Origin: Methanobacteriota archaeon
GTDB taxonomy: Archaea > Halobacteriota > Bog-38 > Methanoflorentales > Methanoflorentaceae
Assembly (NCBI GenBank): GCA_963719035.1
Contig: CAVRAO010000011.1
Coordinates: 32,001 to 96,000 of the forward strand
DNA length: 64,000 nucleotides
Reading direction: 5' to 3'
The translations under genes and the position numbers were made by a program. Positions 31,965 to 62,728 of the stretch are shown here, one piece after another. Within the stretch, counting starts at the first letter, position 1; every line of letters begins with the position of its first letter. The notes beneath the pieces are model-generated. The model was given only the letters and a program-made list of their open reading frames with translations, was not told where the DNA came from and made no database searches.

Positions 31965-32129
31965 ATGAGCGTGATGGCAACAAACGCAACGACCATAAAC
32001 AACGGGGCCTGCCTCTACGGCCTTCGCTACGGCTGTGTGAACACCACGAACGACCCGAACTGCAACCAGTGCGCAGAGCGCCTCGCCAATGCGGTCAACA
32101 GCGTGCTCCGGCCAACAGCGCACAGATGA
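31965..32129 (+). CDS. 54-aa 4-Cys peptide (copy 2)
   Basis: MSVMATNATTINNGACLYGLRYGCVNTTNDPNCNQCAERLANAVNSVLRPTAHR; frame and length preserved. Confidence 0.65.
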   Translation: MSVMATNATTINNGACLYGLRYGCVNTTNDPNCNQCAERLANAVNSVLRPTAHR

Positions 32130-34673: not shown

Positions 34674-34747
34674 GGGCTCGTGGTCTAGCTGGTTATGACA
34701 TCGCCTTTACACGGCGAAGGTCGGGCGTTCGAATCGCCTCGAGCCCA
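34674..34747 (+). tRNA. tRNA-Val (TAC)
   Basis: GGGCTCG/CGAGCCC acceptor stem, TCGCC-TTTACAC-GGCGA anticodon arm, GTTCGAATC T-loop. Confidence 0.97.
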
Positions 34748-34993
34748 TCGTTTTTTTGAATATTGGTGGAAAAATAGGCTTCTTTTTCAATAAGGGTTCG
34801 TAACTCCCTGATTTCTTCTTCAAGAACCTCAATTCGAGCCGAAAAATCAGATTTGGCGTTTTGTTTTAACTCAACAAACGCGAAAATTTAAGCTTGTCTT
34901 TCCCTTTGTTACATATCCAAGATTCTCCATTTTTTACGGTCGTTTCCAATCTACTTGCGCAGATCGGTGCTTGGAGCGACATGTCGAAACACG

Positions 34994-35968
34994 TTAATTA
35001 TTACGTGTCACCTGTGTCCTTACATCTACTGTCTGCCCATTCGTGGTCATCATGATCGTTCCTTGCGTATCCGTCCGATATACCGTCGCGTTCACGGCAG
35101 CCAGTCGTGTCAGCGCTTGTGGCGCTGGATGGCCGTACGTGTTGTTCGCGCCGACCGAGATCACGGCGATATGTGGTGTGACCGCCCTAAGGAACGATGC
35201 ACTCGTAGCGGAGCGACTTCCGTGATGCCCCACTTTCAGCACATAAGCGCTGCAGTTGTACGTTGAGATCATATGCGCCTCAGCTGATGATTCTGCATCG
35301 CCCATCAGCAGATAGCTCACACGTTGATAAGTCACTTTAATGACTATGCTGTCATCATTATCCGGCGCATGCGTCGCGGAAATCTGCTGCAACGGATTAA
35401 TGACGAAAACAGCTGTATCCGAGTCGATGGCTATGCTGTCGCCTGCCCTCGATTTTGTGTAGGTGATGTTCTTTTGCGCGATTAACTGCAGGAACGTCGC
35501 GTACGTAGCGCTTGATTTCGGGAGCCCTACGTCATAGACGTGATCCACCTGCATTGAATCAAGAACAGTGATTAAACCGCCAACGTGATCGGAGTCTGGA
35601 TGTGTTGCGACAACCCCATTAAGACGTGTTATCCCGATAGAATGGAGATAAGCCACGACTGTGGGCCCCTCTGACTGTTTGCCGCCATCGATGAGCAGCG
35701 ATTCGTTATGTGGGAACGTCAAAAGGATAGCGTCTCCCTGCCCCACGTCGATGACTGACATAGTGAGATTCGAGCCTATCGATTGTTGGACCTGAGGGAG
35801 TTCTAAGGAAGGATTTGCCGCTGGAGTTGAACCCGACGGTGAGGTGTTCGCGGTAGGTGAGGGTGACAGCGTTGATACAGGAAACGTTATGCAACCGGCC
35901 ACAGACAGCGACGCTACGATAACAAGCACTATCGCAGCTATTGGTTTCAATTGCATACGATTATGCAA
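34994..35968 (-). CDS. ComEC/Rec2-like MBL hydrolase lipoprotein
   Basis: VAGC lipobox; DVGQGDA, THPDSDH, MGDA, KVGHHGS, YGHP. Confidence 0.9.
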   Translation of the reverse strand: MHNRMQLKPIAAIVLVIVASLSVAGCITFPVSTLSPSPTANTSPSGSTPAANPSLELPQVQQSIGSNLTMSVIDVGQGDAILLTFPHNESLLIDGGKQSEGPTVVAYLHSIGITRLNGVVATHPDSDHVGGLITVLDSMQVDHVYDVGLPKSSATYATFLQLIAQKNITYTKSRAGDSIAIDSDTAVFVINPLQQISATHAPDNDDSIVIKVTYQRVSYLLMGDAESSAEAHMISTYNCSAYVLKVGHHGSRSATSASFLRAVTPHIAVISVGANNTYGHPAPQALTRLAAVNATVYRTDTQGTIMMTTNGQTVDVRTQVTRNN

Positions 35969-36085
35969 GAGGCGACGGGTGGCTTAACTATTCCAATTAA
36001 GCAGAATGAAAAAAAGAGAGAGCATGCTACATTATTCGCGTAAAGATGCGAAAATTTTTTCCATTTAATGAACGTGATATAGTCT

Positions 36086-36298
36086 ATGAAACGACTCGTA
36101 AGGATTAAGGAGGGCAGGTGGCTGGCAGGGGTCTGCGGCGGAATCGCAAAATATTACGATATCGATCCCATCATCATTCGACTCTTATGGTTAGCCTTCA
36201 CCCTTGCATTTGGTGTTGGTCTCCTTGTCTACATCGTAGCATGGATCCTGATTCCGGAGGAGGGGGAAGAAGAAAACGTTGAAATTAATACGCTCTAG
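36086..36298 (+). CDS. PspC domain protein
   Basis: RWLAGVCGGIA..Y.ID..IIR...YIVAWILIP. Confidence 0.92.
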   Translation: MKRLVRIKEGRWLAGVCGGIAKYYDIDPIIIRLLWLAFTLAFGVGLLVYIVAWILIPEEGEEENVEINTL

Positions 36299-36834
36299 GC
36301 GGCTAATACGTTGTCAACCCACTGTTTTACAGGCGTACCGTAGCCCCATTGGAAATACACTACTTGCCCCGTCTCTAATATGGTTGCACTCACCCAATTA
36401 GCGTTAGGAGCTCCATTTTCAAACGTTGCGTTATATAGTGTATTTCCGTGGGTTAGGGTCGTGGTTACCCGTGGGTTATTTGCATAATATGGCTGAAGGT
36501 CACCGTAATACTCAGAGTAACCGTTATTACACATAGTTCCCGCACAGTGAACGACTATAGCAACGTGGTAGTTGTATTTTACTGGCGCAGGCGGCGTAAA
36601 TTTTGGTGCTGGTGCGGCAGAAGCAGAAGGAGTTATTAGCGTAGCAGAAGGCTTTACTAGCGTTTTCGAAGTATTTTTGACCGTATTAGCAGCCGTTGCT
36701 GGCGGCGTCTCGCCCGGTGATGAAGAAAGATTAGCGCAGCCCGCTATTAACAAAGAAGCAACTAAAAGCAGTAGAACAATTATCGCAGTTATCGGTTTCA
36801 ATTGCGTACGCTTAGTTTTTGCAGCAGAAGCCAT
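36295..36834 (-). CDS. Hypothetical lipoprotein with QLKPITAI signal
   Basis: Shared signal peptide with IAGC lipobox; original ATG appears mutated to ACG. Confidence 0.7.
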   Translation of the reverse strand: MASAAKTKRTQLKPITAIIVLLLLVASLLIAGCANLSSSPGETPPATAANTVKNTSKTLVKPSATLITPSASAAPAPKFTPPAPVKYNYHVAIVVHCAGTMCNNGYSEYYGDLQPYYANNPRVTTTLTHGNTLYNATFENGAPNANWVSATILETGQVVYFQWGYGTPVKQWVDNVLAA

Positions 36835-37219
36835 GTTAAACTAGCCTTTTTCATAAGTTTAAGTCTACAATAAGCGCCCACCCCAACAGCGCAAAAAATG
36901 ATAAACCCGCTAATATGATAGAGTAAGCTGGGGTTATTACAAACATCACCATTATGGCCACCCCTACTAGAGAATAAATCTCTTGGGCATACTTCATCAT
37001 TTATCGCGAACCTCACGCTTATGCAAGAAGCTAAGGTTGGCTTAACTATTCCTATTCTACACGACACTTTTCATGCCGTCACTCCATGTTGTATTATCCT
37101 CTAGGAACGGGACCCGTCAGTCAAAGGAAATCGAAAAAATAAATAATTAGCTAGGAGATAAGGAATGGGTTATAGGAACCCATTTCTAACTTTGTTTATC
37201 AACAAGCCCTTCTATGCGG

Positions 37220-37643
37220 TTATGTGATAGTAATCTTTGACGTAAGTTGCGAAGGTTGATAGGTACTATCACCTGCAAATTTCAGTGTGACGTCATATGT
37301 GCCTGGATTCAAACCGCTTGTGTCGAGGTACGCGGTATAATAACAGTCACTGCCTCCTGAAGATATTGTGCCAATTGTCGCAGTGACCGCTCCGTGGCCA
37401 CAAATCCGGTAGCCTGACGCAATTACATTGATTCCTATGTTGTCTCCCCCGCTTGGATCGCGGACGAATTGAATTGAGTATTTGATGGTATGCATCGACG
37501 TATCGCGCAAGCTTCGAATCTGGAATTGGACTCGGACTCGCTGTGTTATTTGTTGTATTTATGATGCAACCGACTGCCGATGTTAAGACAACAACGAGAA
37601 CGACTATCGCCGTTATCAGTTTCAATTGCATACGCTCATGCAA
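37220..37643 (-). pseudogene. Lipoprotein with Ig-like C-terminus, out-of-frame join
   Basis: MQLKLITAI..AVGC in one frame; PGTYDVTLKFAGDSTY in another. Confidence 0.65.
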
Positions 37644-37675
37644 GACTTAGAGGTTGGCTTAACAATTCCGATTTC

Positions 37676-38233
37676 CTATGGTGTGGTTGTAGGAGTCAAA
37701 GTAAAGATTAAGTCAATATGCACAAAAGTGAAAAATAGGAAAATCCCAAGAATGATCGCTCCGATTATTGCAGTCGCAAGTATGATCTTCTCTCTGTTCT
37801 TTTCTGCCTCTTGACGTAGCGCTATTTCGGATGGCGTTTTCGGCTCCTGTCGTGGTTGCCTATACGATTGAATCGCGGAAACGGCTACTGTAAGAAACAC
37901 GAAGACTATTGAGATTAATGCTATTACAGCAATAGCTTGCCCCGCAGGGGTATGCGGAGCGGTCACACCAGAACTGTCCAGTGCTAATGCAACGAGTATA
38001 ATTACAAACATCCAGATCCACGCCACAACTAGCGTTCTTGTTGCCGACAATACGCGAATTACACGATTCTTACTCTTCGGCGGAGGTTGAGGCTTTAGAT
38101 CAACGTAGTCAGTAGCTTTTGTAGTAGTGTGCGATGGGGTTGCCTGTCCACAGTTGGAACAAAACTTACTTTCAGGGACTAGTGTCGCTCCACAGTGTTT
38201 ACAAAATATAGCCGTCATGTTACAACCACCCAA
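37676..38233 (-). CDS. Zinc-ribbon membrane protein
   Basis: FCKHCG...FCSNCG plus three TM segments. Confidence 0.8.
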   Translation of the reverse strand: MGGCNMTAIFCKHCGATLVPESKFCSNCGQATPSHTTTKATDYVDLKPQPPPKSKNRVIRVLSATRTLVVAWIWMFVIILVALALDSSGVTAPHTPAGQAIAVIALISIVFVFLTVAVSAIQSYRQPRQEPKTPSEIALRQEAEKNREKIILATAIIGAIILGIFLFFTFVHIDLIFTLTPTTTP

Positions 38234-38303
38234 TCATGTTTACAAAATCAAGACGTGCATTAAAGAGACTATTAGAGGCTTAACGTTTCCTGTTAAAGAG
38301 TAT

Positions 38304-38480
38304 TTACCTAGGACGCCAAGTGTTCACTGCCCACGTAACGATAAAGGGCACTGCTAGGATAACAGCGCCATATGCAACAGTAAGGGTTTGATAAAATAGA
38401 CCAATTATCCCTAAAATTATGACAATAGCTTTTATCGCATCTTGGTGTTCGTCAGGGAATAAGATAGATTCTTTTGCCAT
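38304..38480 (-). CDS. Small 2-TM protein
   Basis: MAKESILFPDEHQDAIKAIVIILGIIGLF...; GGAG RBS. Confidence 0.5.
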   Translation of the reverse strand: MAKESILFPDEHQDAIKAIVIILGIIGLFYQTLTVAYGAVILAVPFIVTWAVNTWRPR

Positions 38481-38522
38481 CGCTCCAAACGCGTAACATA
38501 GCCGTAATAGATTTAAGCGTTG

Positions 38523-38690
38523 TTACTTTTCAGGAATTTTAAGATAGGCGAGAACCACTCCAATGATGATACATGCTGCGCCAATGAATACGTTATAGAG
38601 GGCAGCCGTTTGTACATAGACTCCGTATAACGAAATCACTGTAACAAACACACCAACAATTAGGAAAATCCAAGCAAGTGTTGAGACCAA
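38523..38690 (-). CDS. Small 2-TM protein
   Basis: GAGGTG RBS, TTG start, VSTLAWIFLIVGVFV... Confidence 0.55.
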   Translation of the reverse strand: MVSTLAWIFLIVGVFVTVISLYGVYVQTAALYNVFIGAACIIIGVVLAYLKIPEK

Positions 38691-38874
38691 CGCTTTTCAC
38701 CTCTTTCTCTTTACATGGTCGAAAAATAAATCAACGCGTAAGATGGTGATAATTTAGTTAAGCGTTATCTTTTTAGTTCTATTTTTTGCCAAAACACAAA
38801 GTTATGCAGACTTTGTTTGACATCTACCTTATGCAAGAAGCGAAGGATGGCTTAACAAATCCTATTCTTGCTTT

Positions 38875-39291
38875 CTATTGAACGATAATCGTCCCCTTCT
38901 CCTGCGAGTGGATGTAGCAGTTGTAGGGATACGTTCCTGTGGTATTGAACTGATACGTATAAGTGTCGCCCGCGCCAATTAATGGCGTTGAACCGCCCTT
39001 GCTCTCTCTTGGCGGCGTTGAAAATATTGAGTTCTCTGAAAAGAGCTGATGGTCGACCGAATCGTTGTTTCTCCACGTCACATTAGCCCCTTTTTGAATC
39101 GTGAGCGAAGAAGGGTTAAAGGCATAATCGTTGATCACAACTGTATTTTGACTAGCAGTGCTAGCAACTGTGCTTGGCGTAGGGGATTGATTTGTGGTGC
39201 TTGAAGTGCAACCAGCAACGGACAAAGATGCGACCATAAGCAATAGAACGGCTATCGCGGTTATTGGTTTTAGTTGCATACGCTTATTCAA
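38875..39291 (-). CDS. Cupredoxin (plastocyanin-like) lipoprotein
   Basis: VAGC lipobox; AFNPSSLTI..VTW.N.D..H; GTYPYNCYIH. Confidence 0.88.
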   Translation of the reverse strand: MNKRMQLKPITAIAVLLLMVASLSVAGCTSSTTNQSPTPSTVASTASQNTVVINDYAFNPSSLTIQKGANVTWRNNDSVDHQLFSENSIFSTPPRESKGGSTPLIGAGDTYTYQFNTTGTYPYNCYIHSQEKGTIIVQ

Positions 39292-51876: not shown

Positions 51877-52260
51877 TCAACTTAGGTAGGAAATGGTTGT
51901 ACAACGCTCGTCGTTTTTATTTATGATAGATGCATAAGTAAAGCGCAGAGGACCCTTCAGAGCGTCCGATTTGAAAAAGAACGATGGGCTCGGCCGGATT
52001 CGGACCGGCGATCTCCGCCATGTCAAGACGGGGGATTTCGAGCTTTTTGAGGTCTTTTCTTTAGGAGATATGACCACAAGGAAGGCTAGCGCTCCTTCAT
52101 TTACAGTCTGAACTATTCTTGTGGACAAGCCTGCAAGTCGCGAGAAAGTATACGGTAGCCGTATTGTTGGGTAATCGTAACCATCTTTTGCGTGGTGCGA
52201 GAGATTTTACTGCGGTGGATCTCTAGCAGCTCGTTTTTTTGGATTGCAGCGTTGGCAAAT
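51877..52260 (-). pseudogene. SSV-type integrase N-terminal fragment
   Basis: YPTIRLP..LAGLSTRIVQTVNEGALAFLVV..LTWRRSPVRIRPSP; homolog of 40341 region. Confidence 0.8.
51981..52027 (-). mobile_element. att site: 3' half of tRNA-Val(GAC)
   Basis: Minus strand CTTGACATGGCGGAGATCGCCGGTCCGAATCCGGCCGAGCCCATCG. Confidence 0.85.
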
Positions 52261-52504
52261 AGGATTGGGTTATATTGAGCGGCTACATAATGGTAAATGA
52301 AGCTGACGTAGGGCATTTAATCGTTGTGATTAGCCGCGTGCGACTATATGGGAACGTCAGCAACCCGAGCTTTAAAGATGCCAGATTAGTCTATTGAGGA
52401 TCACGTCTCTGCGTCAAGAGGATGCGACGACTAACTTTTTCCTTTCTCTTCCTGCTCTCAAACGTGTCGTCCAACAAGTCTCGTTTCTTGCCGTATGTTA
52501 TTTA

Positions 52505-58212: not shown

Positions 58213-59774
58213 ATGCCCCCAAAAAAAAGATTTGTTGCCCAGACCCATTCAGAGTTTACTATTATTTATCCCCACTAGCTTTTTCAGCAAAGTCCGGCTT
58301 TGTCCCGGGATCGACCGGTTATCATTGCTGAAGACCCATGGTTCTTTCGCAGGCACCGTTTCCATGCCCAGAAGCTCGTGCTTCACCGGGCATCCATGCG
58401 GCGGTACCACGAGTATCTTGTTGCTAAAGGATTCACGGTTGAATACCTTGAAACAGCAGCACTGGAGAAAAGTGCTGACGTCTATGAAAAGCTTGCTGGA
58501 AACGGGGTTACCGGGGTCCATCTCTGCGATCCGCTGGAAAACGGTCTGGTTGATGAGATTGAGAAATCCTGCACCAGGCAGGGAATCCGGCTAGTTACTT
58601 ACGAGAGTCCCATGTTCTTCTGCTCACGGGAATACCTCAGGGAGTTTTATCCTGAAGGGAGGAGATTCTATCTCACGGAATTTTACATAGCACAGAGAAA
58701 ACGCCACAAGATCCTGCTCGAAAAAGATGGCAAACCGGCTGAGAAACGCTGGACGTTTGATACCCTTAACCGGGAACCGCTGCCAAAGGATTTCCTCATA
58801 CCTCCGGTCTGGCACCCCGTTCAGAACGAGTATGTAACCGAAGCGATCAGCTACGTGCAGCAACATTTTCCAAAGGCCTCTGGCGATGTGAACGCCTTTT
58901 CCTGGCCAGTCACGTTTAAAGATGCGGAACGCTGGTTTGACGATTTCCTCATGAACCGGCTGGTACTGTTCGGGAGGTACGAAGACGCGATTCAACGGGA
59001 TGAAACGGTTCTTTTCCATTCCGCGCTCAGTCCCCTGCTGAATATCGGGCTCCTCACCCCTGGATACGTGGTGGATGCTGCATTGCGTCATGCACAGAAG
59101 CATGATACCCCGATTTCGTCTCTTGAGGGTTTTATCCGCCAGATGATCGGCTGGCGCGAGTTCATCAGGGCAGTCTATTACATCGCAGGAAAAAAAGAGC
59201 AGACATCTAATATACTGAATTTAACCCATTCGGTACCTCCCTGCTTCTGGACAGCCTCAACGGGTATCGAACCTGTTGACAGGACGATACAGCGTGTGCT
59301 CACTGGTGCCTATTGTCACAATATCGAGCGCCTGATGCGCTGGGTAATATCATGCTGCTCGCCGAATTCCATCCGGATCGGGTCTATGACTGGTTCTCGG
59401 AGCTCTTTATTGATGCATATGACTGGGTCATGGTACCCAATGTTTACGGGATGAGTCAGTTTTCCGACGGCGGGCTGATGAGTTCCAAACCCTACATATC
59501 CGGTTCCCCGTATGTGCTGAAGATGAGTAATTACCAGGAAGGTCCGTGGTGCGATCTCTGGGATGCTCTCTACTGGCGTTTCCTGTATATCCATCGGGAC
59601 ATCTTCGAGCATAACCCGCGGATGGCCCCCGTCATCACGTATATCACCCGCATGCCGGAAGAGAAACGGGCCCCGATGATCGTAAAAGCAGAAAATTACC
59701 TCACCTCAATCGGGGCATGTGCAGGGGTACCGGAGTCCCCCTCCAGCGAAAGGAAACTAAAGAAACGCCGGTAA
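58213..59774 (+). pseudogene. Cryptochrome/photolyase (PhrB-like clade), in-frame TAG and frameshift
   Basis: IYPH*LF, FHAQKLVLHRASM, FG.YEDA, EGFIRQMIGWREF, HNIERLM|LGN, FIDAYDWV, SKPYISG. Confidence 0.88.
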
Positions 59775-59829: not shown

Positions 59830-60217
59830 CCAAGCTAATCAGGACAAAATACGGTATGAACACTATGTTCCGGTGCCTCCAGCGCCAGCAGATGCTATAA
59901 AATCGTTATTAGAAGGACGCGCTAGGAACGAAAAAATGTTTTTGTATAACTCGATTAATAAATGGTTCAAACGCGAGAAGATATCTCTATCGCGCGTAGC
60001 GGCCCATTTCACGCTAGGGGACGCGAGGAAGTTCACTGAACAATATGGCGATATTATTCGGTGGGATCAGTCGAACAGAGCCTACATTATGACGCATGGC
60101 GTAAGTGAAATCGATTGGGAATATTACAAGCATCCGCTGCCGGAGAATGTTTTTGATGCGTATATGCGATACTGGGCGGATGTGCGGTTGGCGTGTAATT
60201 ATCCTTGCGTTGATTGA
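59830..60217 (+). pseudogene. Tyrosine integrase C-terminal fragment 1
   Basis: QDKIRYEHYVP, LGDARKF, THGVSEIDWEYYKHPLP. Confidence 0.85.
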
Positions 60218-60327
60218 AATCTTGTGGACAGCCAGAAACGTATAGGTAAAGATAGGCCACGTATATATGATGGGTTTATTAGCCGTTAAGTCGCGTATAA
60301 TGGCTTAACGCCCTGCTATACCTGTCA

Positions 60328-60504
60328 TTATTTCTCCAGTGAGTCTAGTCCTTCTAAACCTAAACAAAACACACCAACTCCTAGAAGGACTCCAATTGTG
60401 GTGTAGTCCAACGCTGGTATAACAGACATAGATGCTAAGATCGACATAACAACACTTGCAATTCCCATTCCTAACGCGACTGCATATAACACGATCTGGG
60501 TCAC
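60328..60504 (-). CDS. Small 2-TM protein
   Basis: GAGGTG RBS; IVLYAVALGMGIASVV...LLGVGVFCLGL. Confidence 0.6.
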   Translation of the reverse strand: MTQIVLYAVALGMGIASVVMSILASMSVIPALDYTTIGVLLGVGVFCLGLEGLDSLEK

Positions 60505-60699
60505 GTTCTCTCGAGCTATGTTCTCACCTCCTTACTCGTAATTAACGAACAGACGATTAAAGAGATCCGCCATTTTACGCGTCTTATTGTGTAGTTTGAT
60601 CGCGATTCAGCAGAGAGTTGACACTGATAAACGAAGCTTGGGATTTTCAGATCCGATTGTTCAGTTCTATGTGCTCACGACTTAGTAAACCAGCCTTTT

Positions 60700-60790
60700 G
60701 CACGATATCGATTGGAGGCAGATAAACATCCGCTGCCAGAAAACGTTTATGACGTGTATATACGGTATTGGGCAGATGTGCGATTCTAAT
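60700..60790 (+). pseudogene. Integrase 3'-end fragment 2
   Basis: IDW..KHPLPENVYDVYIRYWADV. Confidence 0.85.
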
Positions 60791-60835
60791 TCTATGACAA
60801 AAAAGAAGGAAAGGAAGCGCGAACGCTCCCCTTTT

Positions 60836-61093
60836 TCACCACGTTGTGTGGATTGCCTCCTCCAAAGACATCGCTGGTGCAATGTGGGCCACACCGAAGC
60901 TGCTAAATGGTGCCGTGATCTTAAGCAACGAGACTTCACTGGGCGCATCGAAGATTGCCACGGACGCGTGCCTGCCAATGAGGACGTAGCGACCGATCAG
61001 CTTGACGTCGTCAGGGTATTTGAATTGCTTCCACTTTTCGTAAACCTGCTCCATATGGTCAGGATCAAATTTAAACCACAATACAAACAGCAT
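60836..61093 (-). CDS. DUF3303-like protein
   Basis: GGAGGTG RBS; P.DVKLIGRY..VAIFDA..APAMSLEE. Confidence 0.75.
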   Translation of the reverse strand: MLFVLWFKFDPDHMEQVYEKWKQFKYPDDVKLIGRYVLIGRHASVAIFDAPSEVSLLKITAPFSSFGVAHIAPAMSLEEAIHTTW

Positions 61094-61239
61094 TTTTTTC
61101 CACCTCCTTTCATATTGGCAGCGGTGGTAGTAACCGCCGTTTTTTCTAAAACATTTATAAAGACACTCTAGGGGAATAAATGTTGTTATGACGGACGTCC
61201 GTCACAGTGATAAACGATATTTTGGCTACGAGCGGTAAC

Positions 61240-61447
61240 GCGTCACAATCTCATTTTTTTCTTGGCGATTTACGGAAATTCGCGGAAAATACGGCGATAT
61301 TTTTCAGTAGGATCAATCAAATCGAGCTTGTATTATGACGCACGGCGTGAGCGGCATTGATTGGAAGCACTACAAGCATCCGTTGCCTTTAAATGTCTAT
61401 GACGTGAATATGAAAAATTGGGCAGAAGTTACCGTCGATGCTTTAAA
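61240..61447 (+). pseudogene. Integrase 3'-end fragment 3
   Basis: LGDLRKFA..YGDI..DQSNRACIMTHGVSGIDWKHYKHPLP. Confidence 0.88.
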
Positions 61448-61496
61448 CCATTTGCACCCAAAGCGTTAAGTCAAAAATTCGCTCTGTAAAAAAGCG

Positions 61497-61781
61497 ATGA
61501 AAGGAACGGATATAACGAAAGTTGCTATCGTATCCGCCGTGTGCTTAATTGGATTAGTCGTCGTTCTAAAAAACGTCCTTAACATCCCCGCTGATATCCT
61601 CTCTCGGGATATCATCCTCTGGATAATTATTTACTCAGGGTTCACCATTGTTCTGATTTCCCAAGAGGAGACGCCACGAAAAGAAGGAGCACCGCGGAAG
61701 ACCTATGACAGTCCGTGGCTTTGGAGTGCAGTCATTATAGGCGTGACTCTTGCTATTATTGCAGTGTATGCTTTCGGATAA
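61497..61781 (+). CDS. Small 3-TM hypothetical protein
   Basis: Three hydrophobic segments. Confidence 0.7.
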   Translation: MKGTDITKVAIVSAVCLIGLVVVLKNVLNIPADILSRDIILWIIIYSGFTIVLISQEETPRKEGAPRKTYDSPWLWSAVIIGVTLAIIAVYAFG

Positions 61782-61822
61782 ATGAAATTGTTAGAAACTA
61801 TCTTGCATCTCAATAGGCCAAA

Positions 61823-61920
61823 GTGAGCGTAGTTGATTGGAAGCATTACAAGCATCCGCTGCCTAAGAGCGTCTAGGATACTTACGTGCGATATTGGCGA
61901 GATATCAATCTGTTTCTAGA
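61823..61920 (+). pseudogene. Integrase 3'-end fragment 4
   Basis: VSVVDWKHYKHPLPKSV*DTYVRYWRDI. Confidence 0.85.
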
Positions 61921-61970
61921 TGGCTGAAATGGTCATTCGGCGCGATGAATCTAAGTGGGAGACTATGGCA

Positions 61971-62435
61971 ATGAAATCTCTATTGATTTTGTATTCTTAT
62001 CATCACAAGAATACTGAGAAAATCGCTAGAATCTTCGCAAAAGTGCTAGATGCACAAATAAAAACGCTGCAGCAAGTAAACCTTGAAGAGCTTCAAGAGT
62101 ATAGCCTAATTGGCTTTGGCTCAGGGATATATAGTGAAAAACACCACGAATATCTGCTTGACCTTGCCGATAGACTACCACAGATCACCAACAAGAAAGC
62201 ATTCATTTTCTCAACCAGCGCAATTATGGGAGACGCCAAGGTCGCCAAAGATCATTCGCTGCTCAGGGAAAAACTGCAATCTAAGGGTTACATAATCGTT
62301 GATGAATTCAGTTGTAAGGGTTTTAACACAAATAGCTTCCTTAAACTATTTGGTGGAATGAACAAGGGTAGACCTAATGCTGAAGACCTCAAAAATGCGG
62401 AAGAGTTTGCGTCGAACCTGAAGCAGAACATATAA
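61971..62435 (+). CDS. Flavodoxin family protein
   Basis: SYHHKNTEKIA, GFGSGIY, FSTS, FSCKG. Confidence 0.9.
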   Translation: MKSLLILYSYHHKNTEKIARIFAKVLDAQIKTLQQVNLEELQEYSLIGFGSGIYSEKHHEYLLDLADRLPQITNKKAFIFSTSAIMGDAKVAKDHSLLREKLQSKGYIIVDEFSCKGFNTNSFLKLFGGMNKGRPNAEDLKNAEEFASNLKQNI

Positions 62436-62728
62436 AGCGTTCGCGCTTCCTTTCCTTTCTTCCGTTAAAGAAATGAAGCTGAGGGTAGTTCTCACTGCTG
62501 GATGTACAACTAACCCGACGGCATTGAATAATTATATTAATGTTATTATATTTAGAACGTCTAGCAGTCAATCACTAGCCGCACAAATACTTACATGATG
62601 TCGCTGATTCTATTTTTTAGACCTTTATAGCGTTTTAATCACACGAGGGTCGTCCTAGATATTTCTCAGGCCTTTTACTCATACTGCGGCAGACGAATAA
62701 ATCAACGGTCAGATTTTGCGCGACGATG

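Follow-up and report, generated by a model that had tools for sequence, protein, structure and literature searches.

How does the end of one kind of gene come to stand four times over between the small genes of an archaeal chromosome? The question is raised by a 64,000-nt stretch of the genome of an uncultured Halobacteriota archaeon (positions 32,001 to 96,000 of contig CAVRAO010000011.1, assembly GCA_963719035.1; hereafter the window), in which four repeats on one strand encode C-terminal pieces of an integrase. The best explanation is that these pieces are the spacers of an accretion array within a tRNA-Val(TAC) island. We call the pieces tails and distinguish within them the core, which is the motif CATCCGCTGCC (H-P-L-P) beginning two codons past a Tyr codon, the a part, which is tail sequence upstream of the core, and the b part, which comprises the about 22 codons that follow the core; an upstream remnant possibly of other origin is designated x. 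The genome carrying the window is referred to as G000 and its contigs by C-numbers, while G010 and G017 are complete genomes of relatives.

A repeat search of the window returned four 75-nt copies on the same strand (60101-60175, 60697-60771, 61347-61421 and 61823-61897), at distances of 596, 650 and 476 nt between successive copies. These were confirmed independently by protein queries: the protein of copy 1, searched against the whole genome, matched copy 3 (E 7.2e-20), copy 4 (9.2e-10) and copy 2 (1.5e-7), and two full-length paralogs encoded on C2 matched copy 1 (1.8e-35), copy 3 (3.7e-14), copy 4 (2.7e-6) and copy 2 (7.4e-4). An earlier reading of the letters alone (the original prediction) had described four repeats in one orientation, too diverged to result from a recent duplication, and it was right on both counts, as copies 2-4 are 60-73% identical to the first and derive from diverged integrases. 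The array of four same-strand pieces, of 25-128 codons each, spans 59834-61911 (Table 1), and the G+C content falls from ~0.51 to ~0.41 across about 59.8-63.0 kb of the window. The first copy, predicted as a short segment at about 60090-60185, turned out to be the last ~128 codons of a longer integrase (59834-60217), with an open reading frame (ORF) of 114 aa at 59873-60217. Tails 2-4 are degenerate: the frameshift of tail 2 falls between IDW and KHPLP, the upstream part of tail 3 carries a 1-nt deletion (frameshift) and a TAG codon that leave a 44-aa ORF (61335-61469), and tail 4 contains a TAG. Exactly one cargo gene had been said to follow each repeat. This holds for the three intervals between tails but not after tail 4, where the next tail lies ~11 kb away at C11:104836, beyond the window, and is separated from tail 4 by at least 10 ORFs.

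What the repeats encode is the C-terminal region of a divergent tyrosine recombinase, its likely catalytic Tyr included. This assignment, which had been proposed, is based on matches to a Pfam family, structural matches and a set of invariant residues. G000 encodes two full-length members of the integrase family, of 372 and 438 aa. The 438-aa paralog matched the Pfam model Phage_integrase (PF00589) with 27.3 bits for a cut-off of 27.1, and PF00589 was matched at E <= 0.01 by 4 of the 11 full-length members from G000 and related genomes, the only other Pfam match to full-length members being one helix-turn-helix hit. Tail 1 alone matched no Pfam and no NCBIfam model, and a PDB sequence search with a single protein or a profile as query gave no recombinase match. 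An AlphaFold2 model was built from 11 sequences (mean pLDDT 64), in which the means of 10-residue blocks are 74-94 at residues 130-360, dipping to 45-69 at 221-240, and 43-61 in the tail. According to Foldseek this model holds the two-domain recombinase fold, and the top matches were all tyrosine recombinases (Cre, XerA, Tn1549 Int, XerD and lambda Int; E 1.5e-4 to 1e-2, probability 0.95-1.0, with low TM scores of 0.16-0.42). Residues R283, K314, R382, H405 and Y415 are invariant in 11/11 full-length members, and S or G stands where the His of the H-x-x-R box is expected. Y415, in D-W-x-x-Y-K-H-P-L-P, is likely to be the nucleophile, a role that we take from the H...Y spacing of ~9-10 residues, the model being of low confidence in the Y415 region.

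A search of a protein collection returned 666 clusters of this family at E <= 1e-5, named 'hypothetical protein' or 'integrase' and almost all devoid of a precomputed Pfam domain. Their sources are metagenome-assembled genomes (MAGs) from peat, fen, bog and sediment labelled Halobacteriota, Methanobacteriota or Methanomicrobia archaeon. The family is a divergent, lineage-specific one from uncultured Halobacteriota MAGs. Among viral contigs, 30 pattern matches yielded no confirmed episomal or viral relative.

Had comparable arrays been lacking elsewhere, the original prediction would have favoured deletion debris from stacked elements; such arrays, co-oriented and often headed by an intact integrase, were found throughout the genus. 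Every genome of the genus (17/17) carries the family, at 1-53 matches per genome, as does the sister genus; only weak single matches were obtained outside the family. G000 holds about 32-34 tails (nhmmer), and its adjacent tails less than 8 kb apart form 12 same-strand pairs and 2 opposite ones. When regions fetched from relatives, picked for holding arrays, were added to G000, 70 adjacent pairs were co-oriented and 4 were not, with inter-tail gaps of 38-6574 nt (median near 1 kb). In G010, a full integrase gene (510302-511234) lies directly 3' of tRNA-Val and is followed by 8 same-strand tails, along which no age gradient in tail decay is evident by eye. Three arrays were found in G017: one of 5 tails at 330.6-335.4 kb with a full integrase at its head, one of 11 tails at 2.294-2.313 Mb with a full integrase in mid-array, and one of at least 13 tails at 364.8-386.5 kb. 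Intact integrases directly adjoin the 3' side of tRNA-Val in 4/4 such loci examined (L003, L041, L049 and L050), and in the 8 fetched loci that lack the tRNA-Val gene (L040 and L042-L048) no fragment of it was detected. The longest ORF of the inter-tail segments is co-oriented with the tails in 29 of 58 cases and anti-oriented in 29, which rules out the tail as promoter of the downstream gene. The regions C5:1-5000 and C12:42400-47500 have tail matches identical in E-value and identity, and identical flanks where compared; they represent either a true duplication or one region assembled twice.

What could build such arrays? We favour, tentatively and at somewhat less than even chances, recombination within the 3' end of the integrase gene, probably by the integrase itself, which would insert or exchange units that bring replacement tails. 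A lineage-specific tyrosine integrase beside tRNA-Val would use the 3' 51 bp of the tRNA gene as its ordinary attachment (att) site, and DNA units would also recombine within the integrase's own 3' end. The integrase would most likely be the catalyst, acting at or beside the boundary between AAG and CATCCGCTGCC, two codons past the catalytic Tyr codon, presumably through circular intermediates. Each unit would comprise the core, the b part as a replacement tail, accessory genes (one or a few) and an upstream-tail remnant (x or a). With each insertion the resident integrase would gain a new C-terminal tail and the old tail would be displaced downstream, so that the outcome would read integrase, cargo, tail, cargo, tail and so on, all co-oriented; later, units would be excised, exchanged or eroded from the 5' side. 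Recombination of this kind would explain why tails are co-oriented, why intact integrases head arrays or are embedded in them and why only 3' ends survive. It would likewise explain the absence of att fragments, the single-gene size of the units, the recurrence of modules and the open b frames.

The tails are truncated almost exclusively from the 5' side. With a DNA profile made from the last 465 nt of eight intact integrase genes, nhmmer returned 108 hits, of which all but 5 (103) retain the 3' (b) part. The 5' end of the profile is reached by 13 of the 108; the other 95 begin between -370 and +12 nt, 78 of them no more than 115 nt from the core. At the protein level, 89 of 105 loci extend beyond YKHPLP, and the remaining 16 comprise 7 tRNA-like N-terminal read-throughs, one fetch boundary, one borderline case and 7 true N-terminal or central fragments. 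The start positions of the 89 loci are bimodal, 14 lying at -293 aa or beyond, one at -164 and 74 from -105 to +2. These numbers bear on the plainest reading, passive debris, in which elements were stacked at tRNA-Val, each with its own integrase, and the older integrases lost their 5' parts and the att fragment until only the conserved tail was recognisable, without any role. The island is indeed a classical tRNA hot spot: a recent 5.85-kb insertion stands between perfect 51-bp repeats, and the content of the orthologous locus is wholly different in three species; variable 5' boundaries, stops or frameshifts in many tails (29/90 fail the b-part pattern) and gene-tight mosaicism that also occurs without tails, as for the flavodoxin gene, all suit decay. 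Random deletion, however, should leave both kinds of stump equally and many long pieces, whereas the DNA hits are split 103 to 5 and the protein loci include 74 short pieces for 1 intermediate one. Single-gene units of 0.3-1 kb are also far below the size of a whole element, att fragments are missing from the 8 loci mentioned above, and one short unit recurs, beside different neighbours, in more than one array and genome. Intact 15-codon b motifs were found in 11/13 long tails, 26/36 intermediate tails and 24/41 short tails, the latter devoid of an a part; because the motif stays open in these last, the a part was lost structurally, through deletion or exchange, and not by slow decay. We therefore consider passive debris unlikely.

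Mosaic junctions were revealed by a switch-point map, obtained from BLAST comparisons, in register, of 90 tails together with their 250-nt flanks and with positions given relative to the core. In several modules the partner sequence switches at or beside the core motif. L044_9780 and L048_1138 share 97% identity over 250 nt up to -2 and their b parts differ beyond; among the high-scoring segment pairs (HSPs) with a common downstream flank, 7/27 begin at -7 to +9, which amounts to about 3-4 independent events; and at C12:232383 one junction joins the a part and core of a tail to unrelated sequence. A 367-nt unit (core, b part ending WQNT..., an opposite-strand 67-aa ORF, x, core) occurs three times, twice in G017 and once in G010, with two different neighbours on the left and three on the right. 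In the window, tail 2 from the core to about 60830 (-3 to about +100) matches the end of an intact G017 integrase at 85% identity (L042_2392 HSP). A check put forward with the original prediction was whether the first genes downstream of intact integrases match these cargos; this b part with its terminator region gave the one match to an intact integrase on the cargo side.

One recurrent upstream sequence, x1, is a 45-nt unit found above at least 11 tails. It consists of the hairpin GGAGCC-N7-GGCTCC and ~26 nt, the sequences above the hairpin being unrelated, and its end, GGCAGC-N11-GCTGCC, spans the core; the unit is always joined to the b part of a tail. Sites of x1 include C2:158754, C2:424083 and C8:5427 in G000, and L047:8412, 9600 and 13288, L051:7078 and L044:15448. 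When three x1 tails were folded, short local hairpins were found in two, both from other genomes (z -3.25 and -2.64), and the third was folded as a partial sequence. The hairpin unit is not a tRNA piece by ARAGORN or Rfam; x1 may be a minimal recombination site.

Several observations weigh against recombination centred on the core. Other switch points lie at -72, -26, +16, +28, +32, +48 and +59 to +72, and the near-identical pair L044_7912/L048_3003 (98.8%) switches partner at -72. Identity correlations between a and b parts are 0.04-0.52 throughout, with no clear break at the core. Some x sequences, weakly similar to a parts by eye, may be decayed a parts and not foreign DNA. Instead of the fixed fragment boundaries that the original prediction implied, the 5' ends form a continuum between codons -105 and +2 relative to the Tyr motif, and as pieces shorter than core and b part (~75 nt) escape detection, their concentration at the core results in part from this limit. 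The flavodoxin gene moves among genomes with gene-tight boundaries and without tail 4. The core is unlike the 51-bp tRNA-Val att site, compared by eye, and the integrase would therefore need a second specificity. Contigs of 4 public runs held neither an excised circle nor a clean core-to-core joint, which is no evidence of absence. Four joints found in these contigs (60186 to 60799, 60186 to 60810, 60832 to 61127 and 61347 to 61826) have short sides of 21-30 nt and are not read as excisions, because these sides fit conserved tail sequence of other loci or organisms. The proposal of recombination near the integrase 3' end is partly supported, by the comparable arrays and the partner switches at the core, and not by the boundaries, the scattered switch points or the tail-free transfer of the flavodoxin gene.

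Part of this evidence is what homologous recombination alone would produce, with the tails acting as portable homology of ~75-400 nt and the integrase not catalytic at them. Loop-out between two tails would yield a circle with one tail and its cargo, Campbell-type reinsertion, for which any tail or integrase 3' end could serve as target, would restore the order tail, cargo, tail, and the first tails would have arisen by deletion. Such exchange accounts for the orientation, for inherited 5' boundaries and for the absent att fragments; it agrees with switch points spread across the whole conserved 3' region from -72 to +72, that of the 98.8% pair included; and as the core is the longest nearly invariant block, crossovers would cluster there anyway. 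Tails of at least ~75 nt would also match the minimum useful homology. However, at just 60-85% identity the tails are poor substrates, and junctions of x to core, or of core to a following sequence, in which one side is unrelated cannot come from homologous exchange. Homology would also leave unexplained a reduction of synonymous variation in the core, for which there is modest support: among 27 sequences, which are related to each other, the four-fold sites of the codons P-L-P carry 1.17, 1.26 and 1.53 bits, for 1.41-1.91 bits at flanking four-fold sites. On these grounds homologous recombination as the sole process appears rather improbable.

If units do recombine within the integrase gene, which known systems do they resemble? 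Integrons (IntI, attI and attC cassette arrays), among them those reported in archaeal MAGs (Sci Adv 2022, PMC9668308), are similar in that a tyrosine recombinase heads a co-oriented array of mostly single-gene units with a recurring recombination-associated spacer, and in that units reappear in other arrays beside other neighbours. In contrast, what separates the units here is coding sequence, the 3' end of the recombinase gene itself, and not a folded attC; no significant single-strand folding of the attC kind was detected in window tails 1, 2 and 4 (z -0.61, +0.57 and -0.37 relative to shuffles). Cargo orientation is random (in the window, two minus and two plus), without common Pc-type expression, and the tail array is anchored at a tRNA gene. 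Cassette boundaries are not uniform: some modules break at the core and others elsewhere, and the flavodoxin boundaries are gene-tight. No IntI-type match was found with NCBIfam on tail 1 and the cargo ORFs or with Pfam on full-length members, no IntI-specific model being compared. The tail arrays are not a canonical integron, failing both attC folding and cassette orientation.

SSV-type 'suicidal' integrases with hybrid int(N)/int(C) genes were reportedly treated by Badel et al. in 2020. In these elements, according to an archaeal recombinase review (PMC8371274), a tRNA-matching site lies near the 5' part of the gene and integration splits it into int(C), element and int(N). Similarities are a recombination site inside the integrase reading frame, the joining of int pieces of different origin and integrase fragments that mark past events (PMC8371274). 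In our case, however, the tRNA att site is upstream of the gene, the recurring pieces are the last 25-130 codons only, and an exchange would leave the integrase whole. The order in the window, int(N), 18 kb, int(C), is the opposite of the SSV-type arrangement, and the tails carry no tRNA sequence (ARAGORN, Rfam). The tail arrays are not an SSV-type split.

Some elements, such as icd prophages and the SCC composite islands of rlmH, integrate in the 3' end of a gene and bring a replacement end, so that the target is restored, the old 3' end is left downstream and repeated events give tandem gene ends between cargo, much as proposed for the arrays described here. The differences are that the gene targeted in our case would be the integrase gene of the island, that the units are mostly too small to hold a recombinase and that the displaced ends vary in length. 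With tRNA-anchored islands the locus shares an intact tRNA-Val gene, an adjacent integrase, a perfect 51-bp repeat and hypervariable content, and integrase-less elements between att sites (CIME-like) are known from such islands. The repeat unit inside the arrays is, in contrast, an integrase tail and not a tRNA att fragment: tRNA att sequence bounds the 5.85-kb element (51/51 bp) but not the tail arrays L040 and L042-L048. Tandem integration is mentioned in the archaeal recombinase review referred to above (PMC8371274).

A stronger claim, possible but in our view doubtful, is that the arrays represent a mode of cassette capture distinct from integrons, in which a second site lies within the last 25 codons of the integrase gene, starting two codons past the catalytic Tyr codon, the replacement tail of each single-gene unit rewrites the C-terminus and the old tail becomes a spacer. 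Enzyme tail and gene cargo would then evolve together. Should tails work as sites, this would be an archaeal gene-capture platform whose principle is unlike that of integrons, the site being inside the recombinase gene and each event swapping the enzyme's C-terminal tail; it would account for the hypervariable islands, rich in small accessory genes, that are maintained in a whole class of uncultured peat archaea, and would offer a natural system to study how C-terminal tails tune tyrosine recombinases. Even on plainer readings, a directional process, so far undescribed, is needed to account for dozens of copies per 2-Mb genome in which the 3' end alone survives. No account of integrase-tail arrays was found in the literature searched, which included parts of PMC8371274 and PMC9668308 but not supplementary files.

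Table 1. Features of the tRNA-Val island and the tail array, in window coordinates.
Feature	Position	Strand	Description	Evidence
tRNA-Val(TAC)	34674-34747	+	Island anchor	ARAGORN, Rfam, blastn
51-bp direct repeat of the tRNA-Val 3' part	40555-40605	+	Perfect repeat	blastn 51/51
Integrase pseudogene, 5' part	40664-41741	+	Residues ~119-310 of the 438-aa paralog; two overlapping frames	
18-kb accessory segment	41742-59833		Between integrase 5' part and tail 1	Pfam
Tail 1	59834-60217	+	Integrase 3' ~128 codons, residues 310-437; core CATCCGCTGCC at 60131-60141	tblastn E 7.2e-34
Cargo 1	60328-60504	-	58-aa protein, two hydrophobic segments (judged by eye)	ORF
Tail 2	60708-60795	+	Core at 60727-60737; frameshifted a-part remnant	nhmmer
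22-nt element	60806-60827		Just past the cargo 2 stop; perfect complement of 62436-62457, just past the cargo 4 stop	
Cargo 2	60836-61093	-	85-aa DUF3303/GYD-like protein	Pfam PF11746 E 2e-12
Conserved repeat upstream of cargo 2	61091-61230		Promoter/operator-like; palindrome TGACGGACGTCCGTCA	blastn and alignment
Tail 3	61245-61431	+	Core at 61377-61387; ~62 codons	nhmmer, translation
Cargo 3	61497-61781	+	94-aa protein, three hydrophobic segments	ORF
Tail 4	61823-61911	+	Core at 61853-61863; ~30 codons; in-frame TAG	nhmmer, translation
Cargo 4	61920-62435	+	171-aa flavodoxin-family protein	Pfam Flavodoxin_5 E 6.6e-8, also Flavodoxin_3

The predicted DUF3303-like nature of cargo 2 and the flavodoxin assignment of cargo 4 are supported by Pfam (Table 1). 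Matches to cargo 2 at ~75% nucleotide identity occur in many relatives and are confined to the gene. The cargo 4 gene is found in five other genomes with 88-94% DNA identity, its homology ending at the gene edges between unrelated flanks; a tail lies downstream of the homolog in 2 of the five, and none within 1.5 kb in the remaining 3. Cargo 3 gave weak, sub-threshold Pfam matches only and has a homolog (35%) in a G010 array, 208 nt from a tail. Cargo 1 has no family match, and a DNA search of relatives found no homolog.

Upstream of small GYD/DUF3303-like genes, cargo 2 among them (61091-61230), we observed an intergenic element of ~120 nt, which comprises a Shine-Dalgarno sequence, a GC hairpin, an A/T-rich box and a palindrome TGTAACG...GTTACA and is probably a shared promoter and operator. 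G000 has 12 copies of it (e.g., C8:341956, C8:22350, C8:182216, C8:149005, C6:212947, C11:114526 and C11:117105), 3 of which are contiguous with a tail, and it is also matched in relatives. The inverted pair formed by the 22-nt element and its complement looks like a terminator hairpin. The piece 60799-60830 was found in many other, unrelated contexts among metagenome contigs and may be a widespread short terminator-like repeat.

The island around the array begins at tRNA-Val(TAC), whose 3' 51 bp (34703-34753) are the attachment-site repeat. The tRNA gene and its flank are orthologous to loci of G010 and G017 (75-83% identity); past the tRNA, the islands of the window, G010 and G017 have only integrase and tail pieces in common. 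The two 51-bp repeats enclose the 5.85-kb element (34703-40605), which carries metallo-beta-lactamase-fold, zinc-ribbon and cupredoxin genes (Pfam) and contains no match to this integrase family; it is apparently an integrase-less insertion of recent date, mobilised in trans. The second repeat is directly followed by the 5' part of an integrase pseudogene (tblastn 41157-41729, 53% identity, E 1.8e-59). Because this piece and tail 1 cover successive residues of the 438-aa paralog, tail 1 is, to judge from the sequences, the 3' part of this interrupted integrase or else of a close paralog. It is separated by 18 kb from the 5' ~310 codons, and the two pieces overlap by ~6-7 poorly matching codons. 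The intervening 18-kb segment holds second copies of carB (48% to the C2 copy), of a polyprenyl synthase gene (54%) and of a PAP2-like gene (82%), and it has no synteny in 4 relatives. It is therefore accessory DNA, and its interpretation as host core DNA was ruled out. A pentapeptide-repeat protein is also encoded there.

Within the same segment, a photolyase-related (DPRP) gene at 58300-59774 is broken into two overlapping frames. Compared with the window, the contigs of all four public runs have one additional nucleotide at about 59336-59338, and for this reason the frameshift is probably an assembly error or a strain-specific change. A ~370-bp repeat at 51951-52346 has many copies in each of four relatives, one copy lying beside a tRNA-Val/integrase locus of G010, and a 57-nt core (about 51974-52030) at 90-98% identity; it is not a tRNA by ARAGORN or Rfam. 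An Rfam scan of the window and two array loci detected tRNA as the sole known RNA family. Elsewhere in G000, C9:10608-10661, C9:11785-11827 and C2:710478-710524 are isolated 3' fragments of tRNA-Val, two of them just 1.2 kb apart, and these point to other small att-flanked units.

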